Shown here piece by piece: positions 3,373 through 13,057 of a DNA stretch of 20,000 bases. The stretch's first letter is position 1, and the number at the start of each line of letters is the position of its first letter. The notes below the pieces were generated by a model that had not been told where the DNA came from, did no database searches, and was given only the letters and a program-made list of their open reading frames with translations. The stretch lies in the IMG/VR virus record IMGVR_UViG_3300021964_000044; one strand, given 5' to 3'. The stretch is from an uncultured virus (IMG/VR IMGVR_UViG_3300021964_000044). Its lineage: Duplodnaviria > Heunggongvirae > Uroviricota > Caudoviricetes. A program made the translations under genes and the position numbers.

Positions 3373-3854
3373 CGGATTGGATTTGCGAACTGACCGACAA
3401 AGAACGTGAATCCTTTCTAACCTTCGCAAAACAATCCTCAAGCCCGATTCAGATCTACCTGTATTCCCGTTTCATGGGATATACGGGTAGCATCGTCGAT
3501 TGCGATGAGTGGGTCAAAAGCAAGTTCAAGAAAAGAAATTTCGTAGCTTTGCTTGAGATGGAGATCGACTCCATGCAACAAGATATTGCGAAACTGCGAG
3601 ATGCCATTGATATGGGCATTGTCAAGCAAGACATGGGTGCTTCTCGCATCGCGATGATGCAAAAAGAACTTCGAGGTTCGATTAAACAATTAAATGATGA
3701 AAAAGTTCTTCTTGACAAGCAAGGCTTGATTCTTGCTGGTGCCGATCGCGCTATTCGAGAGATGCTTTTGATTTTCCGCGATGACCCGATTGAAGGCCCA
3801 CTGCAAGAAGCGTCGATGGGCGTCTGGACAAAGATTTTCCAAGAAGAATCTTAG
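3369..3854 (+). CDS. Probable terminase small subunit
   Basis: 161 aa, helical, immediately upstream of TerL, ATGA overlap with the preceding gene. Assigned by position and size only. Confidence 0.5.
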   Translation: MTDWICELTDKERESFLTFAKQSSSPIQIYLYSRFMGYTGSIVDCDEWVKSKFKKRNFVALLEMEIDSMQQDIAKLRDAIDMGIVKQDMGASRIAMMQKELRGSIKQLNDEKVLLDKQGLILAGADRAIREMLLIFRDDPIEGPLQEASMGVWTKIFQEES

Positions 3855-3878
3855 TGATTGTTACGCTATGCTTTGAGC

Positions 3879-5402
3879 ATGGCAGGAACAAGTCTTCATA
3901 GCGTATATCGTCGATCTGCACGTGCAGCAGCACAACAAAGAATTGTCAAAAAGACAACTTCTGTAGATGTAGCACGCGCACGAACTGATTTTGCATATTT
4001 TTGTGATGTGGTTGGAGATAAACCTCCTGCTACGCACCATAAAGAATGGCATCAATACCTGTGCACAGGGGATGATTCAGAATGTCTTGTTGGTATCGGT
4101 GGACCCAATATTGATATTCTTGCTCCACGAGGTAGTGCTAAATCAACTATTCTTGGTTTATACACGGCTTGGGCTGTTGGTGTTCACGCGGTACACAAGA
4201 AACCGCTGAAAGTTCTCTATATTTCATATACGGTTGACGTTGCTCGTCCGAAGAGCGCAGCGATTAAGCGCATTATTGAGGAGAGTAAAACGTATCGAGA
4301 GATCTTTCCAATGGTGAAGATTGCTAAGGGAATTAACTCTAACGAGTACTGGAGCATTGACTGGAAATTTGCAGGGATTAAATCGACTGGTGAAGAAGAA
4401 TTCACTGTTTGTTGTGCTGGTCTCAAAGGTGCTGTGACCTCTAAACGTTCCCATCTCTGTATTATTGATGACGCCATCAAATCTGCGGACGACATTAAGA
4501 ACAGGGATATCCGCCAGGCGATGGAGGACAACTGGAACTCAGTTATTGTTCCCACTATGTTTGAAGGTGGGCGTGCCATTTGCTTGGGAACCCGTTTCCG
4601 TCACGACGATATTCACAACAGCACGTTCACTCCGGCCAACAGTTGGGTCCAGATCGTTCAGTCAGCGATCACAGTGGATGAGCATGGGGACGAGATTTCT
4701 TACTGGCCAGAAATGTGGTCTTTGGATTACTTGCGTGATCGGCGTCGTCAAGCCCCTGTCGCGTTTAGCTTCCAGTATCAGAACCAGATTGTTCAGACGA
4801 GTGAGTTGTCCCTATCACCTGAGCTAATTGTCAAAGGAAATATTGCCACAGAATTCGACACCTTAGGGGTGGGAGTGGACCTTTCGGCTGGTGTTCGGGA
4901 AAAGAACGATTACACCGTTTTCGTGATGGGTGGTCGTATTGGCGGCAAGATTCATATTATCGATTGCAAGCGTCTCCGCATTATGGGCAATTTGGAAAAA
5001 CTCGAGGCTCTGATGGAGATGATGGATGAATGGGGCGTTTGCTACAAAGATGGCGATAAGTATTTCCCTTCTGGTACAGGCATTGAGATTTGGTCAGAAG
5101 CCGTGGCGTATCAGGCGTCCTTGGAGGCAGACTTCAAACGTATTTGTCTTGGGGAGCACGGCCTCTATAACATGCATTGGCATCCCATCAAAGGATTTCG
5201 CGGGGACAAAGTTGCCCGGTTCAGGGGAATTATGGGTCTTTTTGAGCAGCATAAAATCACGTTTAATAAGTATCGAAAAATGAAAGAGCTTACAGATGAG
5301 ATCGTGAACTTTGGTGTAAGCTCTCACGATGACTGTGTCGACGCTCTTGTCTGGCTCTGCAATGGTTTGATGACCCGAGGGAAACTAGAGTTAGAGTATT
5401 GA
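3879..5402 (+). CDS. terL: Terminase large subunit
   Basis: Walker A-like APRGSAKST, Walker B LCIIDD, coupling motif GTR, RNase H-like nuclease motifs GVDLSAG..NDYT and HDDCVDA. ATG 3879 preferred over TTG 3858. Confidence 0.95.
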   Translation: MAGTSLHSVYRRSARAAAQQRIVKKTTSVDVARARTDFAYFCDVVGDKPPATHHKEWHQYLCTGDDSECLVGIGGPNIDILAPRGSAKSTILGLYTAWAVGVHAVHKKPLKVLYISYTVDVARPKSAAIKRIIEESKTYREIFPMVKIAKGINSNEYWSIDWKFAGIKSTGEEEFTVCCAGLKGAVTSKRSHLCIIDDAIKSADDIKNRDIRQAMEDNWNSVIVPTMFEGGRAICLGTRFRHDDIHNSTFTPANSWVQIVQSAITVDEHGDEISYWPEMWSLDYLRDRRRQAPVAFSFQYQNQIVQTSELSLSPELIVKGNIATEFDTLGVGVDLSAGVREKNDYTVFVMGGRIGGKIHIIDCKRLRIMGNLEKLEALMEMMDEWGVCYKDGDKYFPSGTGIEIWSEAVAYQASLEADFKRICLGEHGLYNMHWHPIKGFRGDKVARFRGIMGLFEQHKITFNKYRKMKELTDEIVNFGVSSHDDCVDALVWLCNGLMTRGKLELEY

Positions 5403-5430: not shown

Positions 5431-5613
5431 ATGTCACCTAGTTATTTCGTGGTAGAGCTTGAGCAAGATGCTTACGGTTCTGCTATCCTCCCGCTCCCTG
5501 ATGAGCTCTGTCATGACATGGCTCTTCAACCTAATGAACGCTTCGATGTTGAAGTCGAAGAGGGCACGATCGTTTTCAAACGCCTGGAGGCTGGGTACGA
5601 TATTGATCAGTAA
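5431..5613 (+). CDS. AbrB/MazE/SpoVT-like small DNA-binding protein
   Basis: 60 aa; GSAILPLPDELCHDMALQPNERFDVEVEEGTIVFKR fits the swapped-hairpin pattern (G-S-x-x-hydrophobic-x-L-P...L-x-x-G/N-D/E-x-hydrophobic...G-x-I-x-hydrophobic). Confidence 0.7.
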   Translation: MSPSYFVVELEQDAYGSAILPLPDELCHDMALQPNERFDVEVEEGTIVFKRLEAGYDIDQ

Positions 5614-5627
5614 ACTACTTAATCAGA

Positions 5628-7889
5628 ATGGGCGATAGTGCGAAATCCCAAATTGAGGATATGCTCAAGGCGGTAGTCACCCGCAGTAGTGACGGTCCAG
5701 CGGACACGATGCTGATTAACGCGCATCTGTCCCAGATGAAGATGTTCGGTATCCGCCAGGGTGTTGAGTTTTATCCCGCGCAAGACAACTTAGGGACACA
5801 GCGATACGACTTCATTCAACAAGTAATCCGTTTTAATAAGCTCGATGCACGCCTGGATTCCATTTGGGATCGATTTTTGGCATACGGCAAAGGGTTGTTT
5901 TATATCCGACCCACGCAGAAAACGTATCGTCTGTACTGGTTTGACAAAGATGCGTATCGGACTTATTACTCTCCAGAAGGTGACCTTGAAGAAGTCCTGA
6001 TCATCTACCCGTATAAGGTAAAGTCCTCTAAGGGTTTCCAAGGCGTCGGCTTAAATACGGATAAGCGTTACATGCGTCTGCGCATTACCGCTAGTGAGAT
6101 TGAGGAATACCATAGCGAAAAAGAGATTGGGTTCGATGACGTGTCAATGGACATGCCATTCACTCAAAAGAAAGTGGTTGCCAACAGTATGGAGTTCATT
6201 CCATGCGTGGAGGTGCTGAACAACCCTGACGCCTTTGGCACTGAAGGCAGTGGTGAGTTTGAGTGGGTTGCTAACCAGATCATTGCTCACGATGAGATGG
6301 TAAAGAACATTCGTGCCAACCTTTCGTTCTTTGGCAATCCAACCCTCCTGTCATCCCGTCCTAAACAGGACATCGTGGAGACAAACCAAGATGAGACCAG
6401 CCAGCGGCCAAGTATTTCGAGTCAATCTGGTTTCCAATCCGACTTCTTCCTGTCTAGCTCAACCTTTAAGCAGGACAACGTAACTCGTGCTCCTGCTGGG
6501 TATAACGGTCGCCCTGGTCAGGGGATGCGCGTTCCAAGGGTGATTGCAAACCTTGAGCCTACAGATCGTGTTGGCTTTATTACGCCTAATGCGGTTAGTA
6601 CTGACCAGGCCCGTTACGCAGAACAGCTTCGCAGTGAGATACGCCTTGCTCTGGGCGGTATTGATGACCTGAGTATTACCAACGTCACTGCAACCGAATA
6701 TAAATCTGCATACGGTCGAGTTAGCGCCACTGCCAAGAAAAAGTGTTTACAGCTTTATACATATGGCATCTGCCGTTGTTTTGAGCTGATGATCTTCCAG
6801 GAGGAGCAAATCTTCCGTAAGTCGATGGCTTATGAAGCTGGAATTAAAACTCCTGCTGTTCCTGAGGATCTCGAAGACGAGAAAGCATTAGCTAAATACG
6901 AAAAACAGAAAGCAAAGTACGAAGAGAAACTGCAAGCTGCAGTTGATGCGGCTATCGAAACCCAGGAGATTCCGCCAGGAGTTCTTGGTTTGGCGCCAGA
7001 CGGTGATAGAACTGTCGATTGGCGTTGGTTGGGTCCTGTGTATGAAGATACAACGCAGGATAAACTCAACCAGTCTATCTTCACCAGGAACTTGCAAGAG
7101 TTAGGTGTTGATAGCATTGAAGCACTGAAGTATTTATTCCCTTCTAAAACGGATGACGAAATCGCGAGCATGCTCTCTGGTTTCCCATTCCGTGTGGTAG
7201 GGGAAGTACAGAGGGCTTATTCCGCGTTTATTGATCTAATCAATCAAGAAATGCGGACTCCACACCCGCAGCAACCGAATCTTCCGATGGCTGCGGATCC
7301 GAGACTTGATCTCACTCCCTTCCTTTACCGCACACTAGAAAGCCTACAAAAAGAGGTAACCTATGCAGGCCGATACCGCAATGCCGACCCAATCGGCACC
7401 CCAAGTATCCCAGACCCCACAGAGCAGCTACGCGGCTCCAACGCAAACAGCAGCGGCAGCTCCTTCGGTGGCAACGACCAATCAGTGGGTGGCGCCGTAC
7501 CAGCAGGCAGCGGCCCCAGCCCCGCAAATGCAGGCCCAGATGGGGATTCCCCAAGCGCCGGTCTCAACCCCTACTCAGTACGCACCCCAGACATCGCAGG
7601 CAGCCCCACAACAGGAGAATCCTTATCGGGACGCATTCAACAAGGTGGTCGGGCTCCTGAGTTCGCCCGTCCAATTCCCGTCCCTGGGTCAACAGTCGAG
7701 TCAGACTCAAACAATCGACCCGGCCAGTTACAGTTCCCAACAGGCTCCCCAATTCAGCAACCTGGGGATGCAGACTTCTTCGCCTTCGATCAACAACAAC
7801 CAGGCATTCTCCAACGACTATTCCCAAACTTCTCTGGAGATAACTCCGGAGCAGATGCTGGCAAACGGAGTAAGTCACGAGGGTCTTGA
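5628..7889 (+). CDS. Probable portal protein with a long low-complexity C-terminal extension
   Basis: 753 aa between TerL and scaffold/MCP, with a mixed alpha/beta core of about 580 aa. The last 175 codons overlap the scaffold gene. Assigned mainly by synteny and size. Confidence 0.72.
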   Translation: MGDSAKSQIEDMLKAVVTRSSDGPADTMLINAHLSQMKMFGIRQGVEFYPAQDNLGTQRYDFIQQVIRFNKLDARLDSIWDRFLAYGKGLFYIRPTQKTYRLYWFDKDAYRTYYSPEGDLEEVLIIYPYKVKSSKGFQGVGLNTDKRYMRLRITASEIEEYHSEKEIGFDDVSMDMPFTQKKVVANSMEFIPCVEVLNNPDAFGTEGSGEFEWVANQIIAHDEMVKNIRANLSFFGNPTLLSSRPKQDIVETNQDETSQRPSISSQSGFQSDFFLSSSTFKQDNVTRAPAGYNGRPGQGMRVPRVIANLEPTDRVGFITPNAVSTDQARYAEQLRSEIRLALGGIDDLSITNVTATEYKSAYGRVSATAKKKCLQLYTYGICRCFELMIFQEEQIFRKSMAYEAGIKTPAVPEDLEDEKALAKYEKQKAKYEEKLQAAVDAAIETQEIPPGVLGLAPDGDRTVDWRWLGPVYEDTTQDKLNQSIFTRNLQELGVDSIEALKYLFPSKTDDEIASMLSGFPFRVVGEVQRAYSAFIDLINQEMRTPHPQQPNLPMAADPRLDLTPFLYRTLESLQKEVTYAGRYRNADPIGTPSIPDPTEQLRGSNANSSGSSFGGNDQSVGGAVPAGSGPSPANAGPDGDSPSAGLNPYSVRTPDIAGSPTTGESLSGRIQQGGRAPEFARPIPVPGSTVESDSNNRPGQLQFPTGSPIQQPGDADFFAFDQQQPGILQRLFPNFSGDNSGADAGKRSKSRGS

Positions 7890-8382
7890 GATTCACGACC
7901 ACTTCGGTCCTGATGCTGCAAAAGTCCTTAACGACTATTCATGCAACCTCGAAGATGCTCTGATTCAAACCAACGCGCAGTTGGTTGAAGCTTGCAACCT
8001 GCTTCAGGAACTGTCTGGTGAGCATAAAGCTTACGAGCAGATCCTGACTGATCCTGACACTCTGGCTGACTACACCTGCGAATTCTTCGGTGAGAACGGT
8101 CCTTATCCGATCCCCGAAGAGCAAGTGCAGCCTCAGGGCATGGCTGTTGGTCAGCAGTTCCAACAGCAGCAGTTCCAGCAGCCCGCTGCACCTCAGCAGG
8201 TGGCTCCTCAGCGCCCTCAGATGCCTGTTCCTCCCCAGCCTCAGGCCCAAGCCAACCCCAGTGACTTCTGGAACAGCTTCGGCAACCTGGCTGACCGCGA
8301 CCCCGCTAATGCTTGGCGTTATCTGAACTCCGCCCAGCAGACACCTGATGTGTTCCGCAACAAGCTCCTGGTCATGGAGTGA
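7363..8382 (+). CDS. Probable capsid scaffolding protein
   Basis: 339 aa, Gln/Pro/Ala-rich and acidic; helical segment LEDALIQTNAQLVEACNLLQEL; compact C-terminal domain SDFWNSFGNLADRDPANAWRYLN; SD GAGGT at 7353-7357; located between portal and MCP. Confidence 0.72.
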   Translation: MQADTAMPTQSAPQVSQTPQSSYAAPTQTAAAAPSVATTNQWVAPYQQAAAPAPQMQAQMGIPQAPVSTPTQYAPQTSQAAPQQENPYRDAFNKVVGLLSSPVQFPSLGQQSSQTQTIDPASYSSQQAPQFSNLGMQTSSPSINNNQAFSNDYSQTSLEITPEQMLANGVSHEGLEIHDHFGPDAAKVLNDYSCNLEDALIQTNAQLVEACNLLQELSGEHKAYEQILTDPDTLADYTCEFFGENGPYPIPEEQVQPQGMAVGQQFQQQQFQQPAAPQQVAPQRPQMPVPPQPQAQANPSDFWNSFGNLADRDPANAWRYLNSAQQTPDVFRNKLLVME

Positions 8383-8409
8383 TCTAGGAACATAAGTAGT
8401 TCTAGAATA

Positions 8410-8438
8410 GGGGGTAGGAAACTGCCCCCGAATTTTTT
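8410..8438 (+). terminator. Hairpin with GAAA tetraloop and T-tract; possible intrinsic terminator or processing stem
   Basis: GGGGGTAG-GAAA-CTGCCCCC (8410-8429) then GAA and T6 (8433-8438), downstream of the scaffold stop. Confidence 0.6.
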
Positions 8439-8446
8439 ATAAAGTC

Positions 8447-8878
8447 ATGAAGAAAAAGAAGGCAGGCGCTAGAGAACGGGCTGATCAATTTTTAAATGAG
8501 ATTGGTACTGCCGGTGGCGCTATTGGAGCTCCCGGTTTAGTCACATTTGGCGCTGGAGATACAGCTAACCAAGTGATGGCTGGCAATGTCGACCAGTACG
8601 CAATGCAACGTTCCGCTCCAGGGGCTCTGGGTATCGGTGCTCAAGATCAGCAACCCCCAGCTATGCCTATGGACTTGGACGCCTCTTATTTAAAGCTGAA
8701 TCTCCCTGGATCTCCACTGCCGACTAACGGTCTCTTGACGCCTCAGTACCTCAGCAATGCTGAGATGGTGCAGAACCAGATCATGGCGGAGAATCAAATG
8801 TTATTGATGCAGCAAACTCCGTACCAAGGTCAACTGCCTATGGGTTATCCGGAGAGCCCTAAGAAAAAAGGACGCTAA
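8447..8878 (+). CDS. Hypothetical protein with Lys-rich termini
   Basis: 143 aa; begins MKKKKAG and ends PKKKGR; located in the head module. Confidence 0.65.
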   Translation: MKKKKAGARERADQFLNEIGTAGGAIGAPGLVTFGAGDTANQVMAGNVDQYAMQRSAPGALGIGAQDQQPPAMPMDLDASYLKLNLPGSPLPTNGLLTPQYLSNAEMVQNQIMAENQMLLMQQTPYQGQLPMGYPESPKKKGR

Positions 8879-8880
8879 TT

Positions 8881-9135
8881 ATGGATTCCACTAAAGCAAA
8901 AAAGGCCGTTGGTAAAGCGAAGCAGGCTAAAGAAATGGCTGCATTGATGACTGCACAAGCAATTGCAGACGCTCCCATCAACCCAGAGATTCAAGCTCCA
9001 ATCGCAACAATGCAGCCTGAAGACGGCTACATTAATCCTTATCGTCCACTGGGCACTGTTGCCTCTGTTCCTTACAGTGTTGGCAATATGCTTGGCGGTG
9101 GTAACTCCCCTATGTTTGTAAACCCAGAGGCTTAA
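8881..9135 (+). CDS. Small hypothetical protein with basic N-terminus
   Basis: 84 aa; starts 2 nt after the previous stop; MDSTKAKKAVGKAKQAK. Confidence 0.6.
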   Translation: MDSTKAKKAVGKAKQAKEMAALMTAQAIADAPINPEIQAPIATMQPEDGYINPYRPLGTVASVPYSVGNMLGGGNSPMFVNPEA

Positions 9136-9248: not shown

Positions 9249-10394
9249 ATGTTTATTGATAACGATTTTCCAAAACTGTTGGGTGCTGAGCTGTATCGCC
9301 CTCACCCCGCATACGTGGTGGAAATGGCCTGCGAACCCGTCGTGGTCCATGACTTCACCAAACAACCCGGTCAAACTGTTCAGTTAGATCGTTACCGTTT
9401 CTTCGGGAACCCCGGCACCAAGACCAGCCGTGAGCGTACCCAAGATCAAACCATCGGTACTGCTAACAGCCGTTCGATCGTCAAGGACAAGGTGCTTGTG
9501 TCTCTGCGTGAGTACACCGGCCCTGCAGACCCGAACAACACCAACCTCCCGAGCACTTTCAAGATTGCTCGTGAGACCCTGATGACTGCTCAGCGTCTGC
9601 TGCTTGACACCGGCAACCTGAACATGTTCCACCAGAGCATCGGTTCTTTGACCCTGCTCGACGACTATCGCCGTTGGCGCGATCGCGTCTTCCTGGACGA
9701 ACTGTTCAAGGCTGAGTCTCGTGGTCAGTCTGGCGACACCCAAGGCGGTTACTACTACCCCAACGACCACACCAAGACCGGTGTGACCGTTTCTGCTTAC
9801 TCTGCTACTGAGTATGCTTCCGAGCGTTTCAAGTTCAACGTTAAGACCGACCTTCTGAACGTTGTTAAGAGCCTCCGTAAGCGCAACGTGCCTGTCTTCC
9901 AGGACGGCTACTACCGTTGTATTGCTGATCCCTCCTTCATGAAGGATCTGCGTGCTGATCAAGGCTTCCGTGAAGTGGCCCGTTACCCTGGCATGGGTCA
10001 GCCTAACCCTCTGATGGGTATTGGCGCTCCTAACGCCGCTATCTACGCTGGTGGTCAGTATGGCCAAGCCCAGTTCGTGGGTGGTGAGCCTGTGATGCCT
10101 TCCGGTTTCGTGTTTGAAGGTGTCCGCTTCTTCGAGTCCACCAACTTCCCCGACAAGACTGCTACCGTTGACATCGGCGATGGCTCTGGTGCTGTTGCTA
10201 ACCGCACCACCCCTGCTGGCTTGTTCTTCGGTCCTCAGGCTGTTGGTGTTGGTATCGGTGGTCCTAACGCTCAGGTCCTGATCAATAACAACGACGACTT
10301 CTCTCGTTTTATCATCCTGATCTGGCAACTGTACGCTGGTTTCGCGAACCTGAATAAGGACTTCGTGACCACTGCCTTTACCATTTCTGAGTGA
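9249..10394 (+). CDS. Major capsid protein (HK97-fold expected)
   Basis: 381 aa after the scaffold. Strong C/T-ending codon bias typical of high expression. PGQTVQLDRY E-loop-like segment, GFVFEGVRFFESTN and DDFSRFIILIWQLYAGF resemble phage MCP C-terminal motifs. Confidence 0.88.
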   Translation: MFIDNDFPKLLGAELYRPHPAYVVEMACEPVVVHDFTKQPGQTVQLDRYRFFGNPGTKTSRERTQDQTIGTANSRSIVKDKVLVSLREYTGPADPNNTNLPSTFKIARETLMTAQRLLLDTGNLNMFHQSIGSLTLLDDYRRWRDRVFLDELFKAESRGQSGDTQGGYYYPNDHTKTGVTVSAYSATEYASERFKFNVKTDLLNVVKSLRKRNVPVFQDGYYRCIADPSFMKDLRADQGFREVARYPGMGQPNPLMGIGAPNAAIYAGGQYGQAQFVGGEPVMPSGFVFEGVRFFESTNFPDKTATVDIGDGSGAVANRTTPAGLFFGPQAVGVGIGGPNAQVLINNNDDFSRFIILIWQLYAGFANLNKDFVTTAFTISE

Positions 10395-11835: not shown

Positions 11836-12315
11836 ATGCAGCTTGATAATTTTCTAAAGTCCAAAGTTCGTTGGCACTTGGGTTATAACTTAACCTCGGT
11901 GCCAGCGGGTGATATAGCTCGCCTAGAGGAGGCTTTAAGCAACATCCAGGATTCCTACTGGTATGGCAAGATTGTCGAGCAGTTGAGTCGCTGTGATGAA
12001 GCAGAAAAGCGTACAGACATGACCGGCTCAGTCAATAACGACACTGTGCCGCGTAGCCGGATCGAATCGATCGCCGGTGACGTTGATCGTACGATTGCAA
12101 CGTCTGATTTCAGGGATACGTTGAAGACGTGGACGCAGATTTATATTTACGAAACAGATAGGTTAGCATTACATTTATATGTCCCTAACTACAGAAATCC
12201 AGAACAAGCGCGGTATAGATTTAATCGGGAGGGTGCGGAGTTTATTCAGGCTCTTCCTGGTCCTGCTGATACTGCTGTTGGCACCCGCCTTTTACTTGAA
12301 AACAATTTCCGGTGA
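11836..12315 (+). CDS. Hypothetical virion protein, possible head-tail adaptor
   Basis: 159 aa, helical, KVRWHLGY near the N-terminus; located after the capsid genes. Function inferred from position. Confidence 0.45.
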   Translation: MQLDNFLKSKVRWHLGYNLTSVPAGDIARLEEALSNIQDSYWYGKIVEQLSRCDEAEKRTDMTGSVNNDTVPRSRIESIAGDVDRTIATSDFRDTLKTWTQIYIYETDRLALHLYVPNYRNPEQARYRFNREGAEFIQALPGPADTAVGTRLLLENNFR

Positions 12316-12331
12316 GAATATTTCAGTTGAA

Positions 12332-13057
12332 ATGGAACGCAAATTACTAGAAAAATTTTACCAAACTCCTGAAGCTAAAAGGCTGTTAGATACGATCAGT
12401 TTTGCTGAGGGGACGTATCGTGACAACCCAGAAGAGTCGTACCGTGTGATGTTTGGCGGTGGTCTATTTAATGACCTCAGTAGGCATCCCGATAAGGTCA
12501 TTCATGGCGGTAGATATAGCAGTGCAGCAGCTGGCCGCTATCAATTCATGCCTGGTACATGGGAGAATACTTCGGGTCGTTTAGGTCTCCAAACTTTTCA
12601 GCCTAGGGAGCAAGATTTAGCTGCTTTAAAACTGGCTAGGGATCGTCTTTTACCTATAGGCGGACTGTCTATTTTACAGAAAGAAGGGTTTTCTCCACGT
12701 GTTTCAAACGCTTTAGCACCAGAGTGGGCCTCATTCCCTACTTTTGAGGGTGTCAGCTACTACGGCCAGCCAGTCAGATCCTATTCAGAGCTTGATAAGT
12801 TCTATCGGAATGTAAAAGCTCCTGGATCAGTGCCAGTCTCAACTCCCTCAGCGCCAGTTTCAACCCCCTCAGAGTCAGTTAAACCCGAGGTGAAGGAAGA
12901 TACCAAGCCAAAAGAGCAAAGAGGTATGCAGTTTTTACGTAATTATCTGCATTTTCTTCCTGGATTTGGTAGTTCCATGATGCCAAAAGAAACTTCATCT
13001 ATCGATGCTCCTAAAATTCTGGCCCAGGCCTTCAAACCACCTCAATTTATGGAGTGA
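12332..13057 (+). CDS. Lambda-R-type lysozyme/lytic transglycosylase with C-terminal linker and tag
   Basis: LLDTISFAEGT (catalytic Glu), YRVMFGG, SAAAGRYQF, EQDLAAL, LAPEWASFP, YYGQP. ATG 12332 chosen because 12179 overlaps the upstream gene. Confidence 0.9.
   Translation: MERKLLEKFYQTPEAKRLLDTISFAEGTYRDNPEESYRVMFGGGLFNDLSRHPDKVIHGGRYSSAAAGRYQFMPGTWENTSGRLGLQTFQPREQDLAALKLARDRLLPIGGLSILQKEGFSPRVSNALAPEWASFPTFEGVSYYGQPVRSYSELDKFYRNVKAPGSVPVSTPSAPVSTPSESVKPEVKEDTKPKEQRGMQFLRNYLHFLPGFGSSMMPKETSSIDAPKILAQAFKPPQFME
12833..12874 (+). repeat. 21-nt tandem duplication (PVSTPSA/PVSTPSE) in the lysozyme linker
   Basis: ccagtctcaactccctcagcg followed by ccagtttcaaccccctcagag. Confidence 0.85.

Follow-up and report, generated by a model that had tools for sequence, protein, structure and literature searches.

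The window analysed here is a stretch of 20,000 nucleotides (nt) from an uncultured tailed virus (IMG/VR record IMGVR_UViG_3300021964_000044; Caudoviricetes), an S-EIV1-like cyanophage. It carries a phage morphogenesis module that comprises a terminase gene, a portal gene, a gene in the +1 frame relative to the portal, small open reading frames (ORFs) and a capsid gene, with tail and lysis genes further on. We focused on the portal gene and its downstream neighbour, because these two genes share a long piece of DNA. The portal gene (5628..7889, + strand) starts with ATG and encodes a protein of 753 amino acids (aa), with a core of approximately residues 1-578 and a low-complexity tail formed by residues 579-753. 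The second gene (7363..8382, + strand) also starts with ATG, is situated between the genes for the portal and the major capsid protein and encodes an acidic, ‘scaffold-like’ head-module protein of 339 aa. As (7363-5628) mod 3 = 1, this ORF is read in the +1 frame with respect to the portal, and we refer to it as the +1 gene. The overlap measures 527 nt (7363..7889, + strand) and encodes both the C-terminal 175 residues of the portal and the N-terminal 175 of the +1 protein. An earlier note on this DNA, made from the letters alone, had described this arrangement; the ORF list, the sequence and composition counts showed that its coordinates, the +1 frame, the GAGGT Shine-Dalgarno (SD) sequence and the compositions of the two products were correct.

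To which families do the two proteins belong? An exhaustive HMMER search returned 308 relatives of the 753-aa protein. Its match to PHROG 20475 (annotated as ‘virion structural protein’ in the head and packaging category; E 4e-209) extends from residue 5 to 747 and hence takes in the portal tail. The window's protein itself reached phrog_104 at E 0.0068 only, and a PDB profile search gave nothing significant (gp45 portal, at E 0.22 only). Among its 62 aligned family members, 28 had a match in phrog_64, a ‘portal protein’ family (best E 2e-10), and 12 in Pfam SPP1_portal (best E 2e-4), and the Atlas feature matches of the 753-aa protein include SPP1_portal clusters. On the strength of these family matches and of its position after the large terminase gene, we accepted that the 753-aa protein is the portal; the PHROG and Pfam matches of the family members thereby uphold a label that the earlier note had given. 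As for the 339-aa protein, 993 homologues were found, the best 120 of which all cover 100% of the query. The protein is acidic (isoelectric point (pI) 4.17, net charge -21), and the position of its gene fits a scaffold, but the interval from portal to capsid is shared with two further small ORFs (8447-8878 and 8881-9135). No family match was found in Pfam, PHROG, PDB or Atlas, and the scaffold label thus receives no support from homology. With acidity and portal-capsid placement as its only supports, ‘scaffold’ is a positional guess, and we give roughly even odds that the 339-aa protein is one.

Both products have a biased composition in the shared region. The portal tail is rich in glycine, serine and proline (G 0.15, S 0.14, P 0.13) and finishes with a basic C-terminus, GKRSKSRGS (7860..7886, + strand); judged from this composition, the 175 residues of the tail are probably disordered. 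The N-terminal half of the +1 protein is composed mainly of Q (0.17), A (0.14), S (0.13), P (0.11) and T (0.09). No tandem DNA repeats that could be the source of this low complexity were found in the overlap. At the nucleotide level, the overlap is a T-poor island with a guanine-plus-cytosine content of 0.61-0.62, compared to 0.45-0.50 around it. T-ending codons account for 0.16 of the +1 frame inside the overlap, 0.29 downstream and 0.37 across the genes of the window, which bears out a codon shift previously noticed by eye at the end of the overlap.

The start context of the +1 gene, aaaGAGGTaacctATG, contains the GAGGT sequence (7353-7357), a +1-frame TAA (7357-7359) and the ATG (7363-7365). 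All these signals are held by the portal codons for LQKEVTYAG (7344..7370, + strand). Due to the presence of the in-frame TAA, ATG 7363 is the earliest possible start of the +1 ORF.

We then analysed whether this organization is conserved. The close set consisted of the best 80 of 513 IMG/VR relatives. Together with phage S-EIVl and the window these made 82 sources, of which 8 end in the portal gene and 5 in the +1 ORF; the 69 complete ones correspond to 61 distinct sequences. Results showed that in 61/61 sequences an ATG follows a +1-frame stop by 3 nt within a near-invariant SD context, and that the overlaps measure 506-563 nt. Neither the portal frame nor the +1 frame contains a stop in any of the 61, compared to 3-9 stops in the +2 frame of every one of them; the antisense frames over the overlap are mostly closed, one of them being open in 9/61. 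The comparison of homologous loci that the earlier note had called for thus revealed a portal frame that stays open across the 5′ half of the +1 gene in all 61 close sequences, with no early stop.

S-EIVl (KJ410740), whose portal is 51% identical, is the sole phage relative in GenBank. Its portal-like ORF (L001 6001-8304) and its +1 ORF (L001 7751-8728, 325 aa) overlap by 554 nt, and it can be considered a direct homologue, in whose record the overlap is left unannotated. Both GenBank genes, AHV82224.1 (767 aa) and AHV82225.1, appear as ‘hypothetical protein’, and AHV82225.1 is annotated only from L001 8327-8728 (KJ410740 59863-60264), that is, the C-terminal 133 aa past the portal stop. Taken as annotated, only the portal frame would be coding in the region equivalent to 7363-7889, and the next gene would start near or after the portal stop. 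In our reading, the conserved ORF starts at L001 7751, so that the record truncates the second gene and its product is mis-sized. The methionine annotated in S-EIVl is absent in the window, which reads IHDHFG at that place, and a search for a conserved internal start near the end of the overlap found none, Met166 of the window not being conserved.

The overlap extends to much more divergent relatives. For a distant IMG/VR clade with portals of 33-45% identity we took 80 loci and excluded 9 whose portal runs off the end; a +1 stretch lies over the portal tail in 71/71 of the others. In the 63 complete distinct loci the beginning of this stretch is 470-608 nt away from the portal stop. Its first start is an ATG 3 nt past the preceding +1-frame stop (32 loci), a GTG 6 nt past that +1-frame stop and behind AAGGAG (26 loci) or another arrangement (5 loci). 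A remote P0068-like clade (24-31% identity) presents +1 overlaps of 65-398 nt in 8/8 loci. In a remote P0063-like clade with short portals, the +1 overlap is 266-356 nt in the 7/7 best loci, which were those examined out of 80, the remainder looking like the main family. Several loci of the remote clades carry the ATG within the conserved N-Y-G codons of the portal. IMG/VR scans with the single proteins P0012 and P0068 returned no matches, whereas alignment queries did match. Finally, a genome collection yielded 13 loci, 12 of them with a complete portal end, and the +1 overlap was found in 12/12 with a length of 353-683 nt. Nodosilinea nodulosa PCC 7104 (scaffold 736869-745196; 683 nt) and Aetokthonos hydrillicola CCALA 1050 (353 nt) are among these; the portal/+1 modules of these filamentous cyanobacteria are probably prophages or remnants. 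Several other matches in the genome collection were phage contigs binned into unrelated metagenome-assembled genomes. Clades thus differ in overlap length, from 65 nt at the shortest to 683 nt at the longest.

An assembly or sequencing error that had created an artificially long portal ORF would not account for the same architecture in more than 150 independently assembled loci, an isolate genome and cultured cyanobacterial genomes. Around the overlap itself, where read support had been suggested as a check, independent metagenome contigs are identical to the window over 7516-8500 and 7106-7367, and an RNA library provided a 700-nt contig that covers 7158-7857 with no gap. In divergent contigs, the indels add up to 0 or 3. 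On all these grounds we excluded an assembly error, the probability of which we regard as practically nil.

The opening of one frame might also be a by-product of the codons that encode the other. We therefore fixed one of the two proteins and redrew its codons from window usage (5000 trials; 10 sequences). With the +1 protein fixed, the portal frame gained 6-11 stops on average, and it remained open in 0/5000 trials for 8/10 sequences and in 1 and 10/5000 trials for the other two. This result bears on the possibility that only the +1 gene is functional and that the portal simply reads on, its tail being a tolerated appendage without function: portal-frame openness needs special synonymous choices, and yet the frame is open in every relative examined. 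If the tail were functionless, stop mutations would be expected to have shortened it in some lineages.

Sequence variation was then examined at each codon position in 57 sequences, after dropping 4 for incomplete genes. Diversity at positions 1/2/3 was 0.144/0.078/0.489 in the portal-only region and 0.209/0.148/0.500 in the +1-only region. In the overlap, counted in the portal phase, it was 0.253/0.127/0.238, indicating that the third position is free in neither frame. The drop in portal third-position diversity, from 0.49 to 0.24, is not what a region coding for the portal only should present. Likewise, diversity at four-fold sites of amino-acid-conserved portal codons decreased from 0.63 before the overlap to 0.10-0.16 inside it. 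Codon usage was also distorted in both frames, with deviations of z -4.9 and -5.7 in the overlap compared to -2.1 and +2.5 outside.

Selection on each frame was quantified as a conditional omega, using our own simplified pairwise estimator in the manner of Wei and Zhang. In 28 phylogenetically independent pairs, omega was 0.52 (0.46-0.59) for the portal and 0.36 (0.29-0.41) for the +1 gene, while ghost-frame controls outside the overlap gave 1.70 (1.46-2.00) for the portal frame and 0.86 (0.74-0.98) for the +1 frame. A replicate with 25 pairs of the distant clade gave 0.64 for the portal and 0.51 for the +1 gene versus 1.85 and 1.11 for the respective ghosts. Thus, the portal values (0.52-0.64 versus 1.70-1.85) argue against a functionless tail and the +1 values (0.36-0.51 versus 0.86-1.11) argue against coding by the portal frame only. 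The result was unaffected by the choice of alignment guide, by restriction to close pairs and by the kappa weight (1 to 4), and every third of the overlap gave it separately. Substitution rates in the overlap followed the order predicted by dual coding, SS 0.058 > NS 0.032 > SN 0.022 > NN 0.011 (S, synonymous; N, non-synonymous). These estimates, together with codon-phase diversity, answer the question of synonymous-site constraint raised by the earlier note: the constraint is found in both frames, and purifying selection, as read from these alignments, is acting on both. The same comparisons show that both frames are kept open and selected throughout a lineage in which portal identity has fallen to 24-45%.

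Overall, we consider that 7363-7889 is a genuine same-strand dual-coding region in which both frames are kept under purifying selection, and we assign to this reading a probability of roughly 0.82. Several observations weigh against it. When the portal tail was the fixed protein in the resampling, the +1 frame was open in 37-3190/5000 trials; since it is often open by chance, its openness alone is weak evidence. The RNA-library contig mentioned above is no proof of transcription, let alone translation. The ghost omegas range from 0.86 to 1.85 and are not exactly 1, which implies that the estimator is biased by context. Portal omega is weakest in the first third of the overlap (0.72, 0.55-0.93). 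The overlap is less diverged overall, with an SS rate of 0.058 compared to 0.115 and 0.091 outside, and portal four-fold diversity is already halved about 300 nt 5′ of the +1 ATG (0.30 at 7062-7362 versus 0.63). A recent sweep, recombination or some other constraint at the nucleotide level may therefore be behind part of the lost synonymous variation. The omega ratios are computed within the region and are independent of its low overall divergence. Within 7062-7362, we found no RNAalifold (z -0.9 to +1.7), Rfam or sigma70-type signal. This interval includes a block, 7107-7136, that is invariant in 55/57 close sequences and on which metagenome contigs pile up; the block is not conserved at the nucleotide level in the distant clade. 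A weak TTGATA-N17-TATTTA can be seen by eye at 7108-7136.

Chance openness of the +1 frame and the position of the second gene in the S-EIVl record, after the portal stop at L001 8327, are the two points in favour of portal-only coding in 7363-7889. Besides the diversity and omega values, this explanation leaves aside the strong SD followed by ATG or GTG just past a +1-frame stop, present in 61/61 close and 58/63 distant sequences. It also leaves aside seven residues of the +1 N-terminal half (M1, P20, Q79, P87, A91, L99 and S112) that are kept in at least 90% of 46 sequences with identities down to 25%. We therefore judge portal-only coding to be very unlikely.

Under dual coding, how is the constraint distributed between the two frames? 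The pattern is patchy: among 163 codon pairs, conservation involves both frames in 32 cases, the portal alone in 30, the +1 gene alone in 32 and neither frame in 69. The +1 frame dominates at 7443-7526, where amino-acid diversity is 0.18-0.21 in the +1 frame and 0.26-0.52 in the portal frame, and at 7620-7673, where +1-frame diversity falls to 0.01-0.11. The portal frame dominates at 7362-7415 and at 7728-7844, the latter with a diversity of 0.20-0.25 for the portal and 0.37-0.47 for the +1 frame. Short motifs stand out in this pattern. In the +1 gene, QWVAPYQQAAAPAPQMQAQMG (QWVAPYQ...; 7483..7545, + strand) is constrained mainly in the +1 frame, and NPYRDAFNKVVGLLSSPVQFP (NPY..AFN.VVGLL; 7618..7680, + strand) includes P87, A91 and L99; NP(Y/W)..AF is retained in the +1 N-terminal half across distant homologues. 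In the portal tail, the P-x-P-G-S/A-T core of APEFARPIPVPGSTV (7653..7697, + strand) recurs in distant portals, and portal P684 is kept in at least 90% of the 62 family members. The second portal motif, QQQPGILQRLFPN (QPGILQRLFPN; 7791..7829, + strand), is constrained mainly in the portal frame, and ‘QPG(I/L)L.QLFP’ is retained in portals at 37-40% identity. The last 20 aa of the portal have a pI of 10, and a K/R-rich end is also seen in relatives, although its length and the position of the stop vary.

These data permit a closer evaluation of the functionless tail. The tail is low-complexity and most variable where the +1 protein is most conserved (7443-7526), the weak portal omega in the first third of the overlap points in the same direction, and more distant portals have much shorter tails, all of which would fit an appendage that is merely tolerated. 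However, P.PGSTV, QPG.L.QLFP and the basic end persist in portal tails at 24-40% identity, and with the resampling and omega results in addition we find a functionless tail improbable, if somewhat less so than coding by the portal alone. The earlier note had gone further and proposed that overprinting gave the portal its long tail. Conserved dual coding and a long low-complexity tail are there. As to the direction of the overprinting, codon usage did not name an ancestral frame: both frames are equally far from the codon usage of the window, both have motifs that are kept at 25-40% identity and both are old.

We next considered how the two proteins might be translated. The portal start region (5608..5630, + strand) lacks an SD sequence, with a mean SD duplex energy of -0.97 kcal/mol (n=58), whereas the mean for the +1 gene is -7.10 kcal/mol (n=61). 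A terminator-like hairpin with a T-run is located just 3′ of the +1-gene stop (8410..8439, + strand). In 56/60 close loci, a hairpin of -8 kcal/mol or stronger directly precedes a T-run at no more than 90 nt from the +1 stop, with stems that differ between loci, which suggests that the hairpin at 8410-8439 is a transcript end or a stabilising hairpin. In the mechanism that we propose, the two proteins would be made by separate initiation, probably on one mRNA, with both cistrons probably at the end of a single transcript. Translation of the portal would be rare and supply 12 copies per particle, a start without SD being suggestive of few copies. For the +1 protein, translation would be frequent and would begin independently, inside the portal gene, at an SD and an ATG or GTG embedded in the portal codons K-E-(V/L)-x-Y-(A/G), its strong SD being suggestive of many copies. 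A coupling of portal and scaffold stoichiometry through the overlap, as had been put forward from the sequence of the window, found no support, since the two starts appear independent and very unequal.

Two long open frames on one strand are also the precondition for a programmed frameshift, and the overlap could exist mainly to produce a portal::scaffold or a scaffold::portal-tail fusion, with the separate products being secondary. The only conserved heptamer is C_CCA_AAC, in the portal frame at 7823-7829, which is kept in 59/61 close sequences; CCCAAAT occurs in 4. A -1 slip at this site would nevertheless enter the +2 frame, not that of the +1 gene, and would meet a stop 4 codons on with loss of the basic C-terminal end. 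The heptamer is probably a mere by-product of encoding ‘LFPN’ over ‘YSQTS’. The +1 frame lacks any conserved X_XXY_YYZ site (no more than 1/61 sequences has one), no homopolymer run is conserved in the overlap, the portal stop and its context vary, and no conserved RNA structure or Rfam element for frameshifting was found. Because the +1 gene has in addition a strong start of its own, we regard a frameshift as the main reason for the overlap as highly improbable. The +1 portal-scaffold fusion that the earlier note had raised as a possibility is not borne out either, for want of a conserved shifty site into the +1 frame and given the varying position of the portal stop.

What keeps the two genes overlapped under the dual-coding reading may be the low complexity of both products, each of which would tolerate the constraints of the other. 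The constraint is patchily shared, and an indel would change the length of the two arms at once. The likeliest role of the arms is to present short linear motifs on flexible segments at the portal vertex, inside the procapsid. In P22, the scaffold is reported to drive portal ring formation and incorporation (PMC5529062, PMC12005531, PMC13386823), and a portal-scaffold contact is reported at the portal wing (PMC13386823). By analogy with a scaffold that drives portal ring assembly, the portal and the product of the neighbouring gene could plausibly interact here. A more specific idea, which we think doubtful, is that the portal tail and the scaffold-like N-terminal arm form a co-evolving binding pair, either mutual or through a common partner, that nucleates the procapsid at the portal vertex. 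If so, the interface would be genetically inseparable, since recombination would be unable to split it and indels would resize both arms. Such a pair would account for the persistence of the overlap, and for its growth from 65 to 683 nt, in a lineage in which portal identity has dropped to about 25%.

Long out-of-frame overlaps are textbook features of tiny viruses and are rare in large tailed phages, which are without a genome-size limit of that kind. Tailed-phage morphogenesis genes that share DNA do so to generate two related products, as in the in-frame nesting of lambda C/Nu3, in T7 10A/10B and in lambda G/GT. In contrast with these cases, whose products share sequence, the portal and the +1 protein have no common residues, and no frameshift signal was found. 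The portal and scaffold genes of P22 are not known to share coding DNA. Our search of the literature, carried out on the full text of a limited collection, found no published out-of-frame overlap between portal and scaffold genes.

The nearest analogue described in tailed phages is provided by the spanins (lambda Rz/Rz1, P2 lysB/lysC). A spanin survey (PMC6139136) classifies 528 two-component systems as 182 embedded, 228 overlapped and 118 separated. As in spanins, there is here an out-of-frame pair on the same strand, with the downstream SD inside the upstream gene, variable length and disorder-promoting residues (PMC6139136). Unlike in spanins, whose overlaps are quoted as ∼116-155 bp in that survey (PMC6139136), the overlap reaches 506-563 nt in the close set (65-683 across clades). 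The proteins also differ, Rz1 being a small lipoprotein while here we have a portal and a head-module protein with no lysis function and no membrane signals. Moreover, spanin partners are known to bind each other, whereas the two proteins of the present pair are candidate binding partners. The second comparison is with the overlapping genes of small viruses (phiX174 and eukaryotic RNA and DNA viruses), for which a review describes selection on both frames, biased or disordered products and distorted codon usage (PMC8227390), all of them shared by this overlap. Those viruses are size-limited and usually combine an old gene with a young accessory gene (PMC8227390); here, by contrast, the genome is that of a tailed phage of the ∼80-kb class, both partners are core morphogenesis genes and both arms are old. 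The words ‘portal’ and ‘Caudovirales’ are absent from that review (PMC8227390).

According to these results, about 0.5 kb of DNA is common to two core genes of morphogenesis, both in an S-EIV1-like cyanophage lineage that is widespread in aquatic habitats and in related elements of cyanobacterial genomes. Since neither arm looks young, the overlap lends itself naturally to studying how constraint is divided between two disordered arms. The results also depict a portal with 12 long tails that carry conserved short motifs and a basic end, and these tails should sit inside the procapsid together with the scaffold and the DNA.

The neighbouring genes complete the module. The large terminase gene (TerL; 3858-5402) lies upstream of the portal. 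The +1 gene is followed by the two small ORFs and these by the gene of the major capsid protein (9249-10394; phrog_1357). TerL starts with TTG at 3858, and an ORF of 161 aa in the same frame ends immediately before it, at a tandem TAG TGA (3852-3857). We rejected the idea that TerL is split by these tandem stops: the 161-aa protein is unrelated to the TerL of S-EIVl, so that 3852-3857 is a normal gene border. The S-EIVl TerL (L001 2544-5084) has 846 aa compared to 514 aa in the window, and the gap corresponds to an insertion of about 330 aa in S-EIVl. The two proteins align in two blocks, residues 6-200 and 531-846 of S-EIVl with residues 14-207 and 201-514 of the window. The insertion is placed at the ‘...SHLC | (I/L)IDD’ site, begins with ‘C-LVGDTMV’, looks intein-like and is without counterpart in the window TerL. 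A 314-aa antisense ORF within the major capsid gene (9384-10328, - strand) is probably a mechanical ORF. Further downstream, the ORFs at 11836-12315 and 12179-13057 overlap by 137 nt on paper. The endolysin/M23-like match of the latter begins only at residue 54-61, and its true start is therefore probably located after the end of the first gene.

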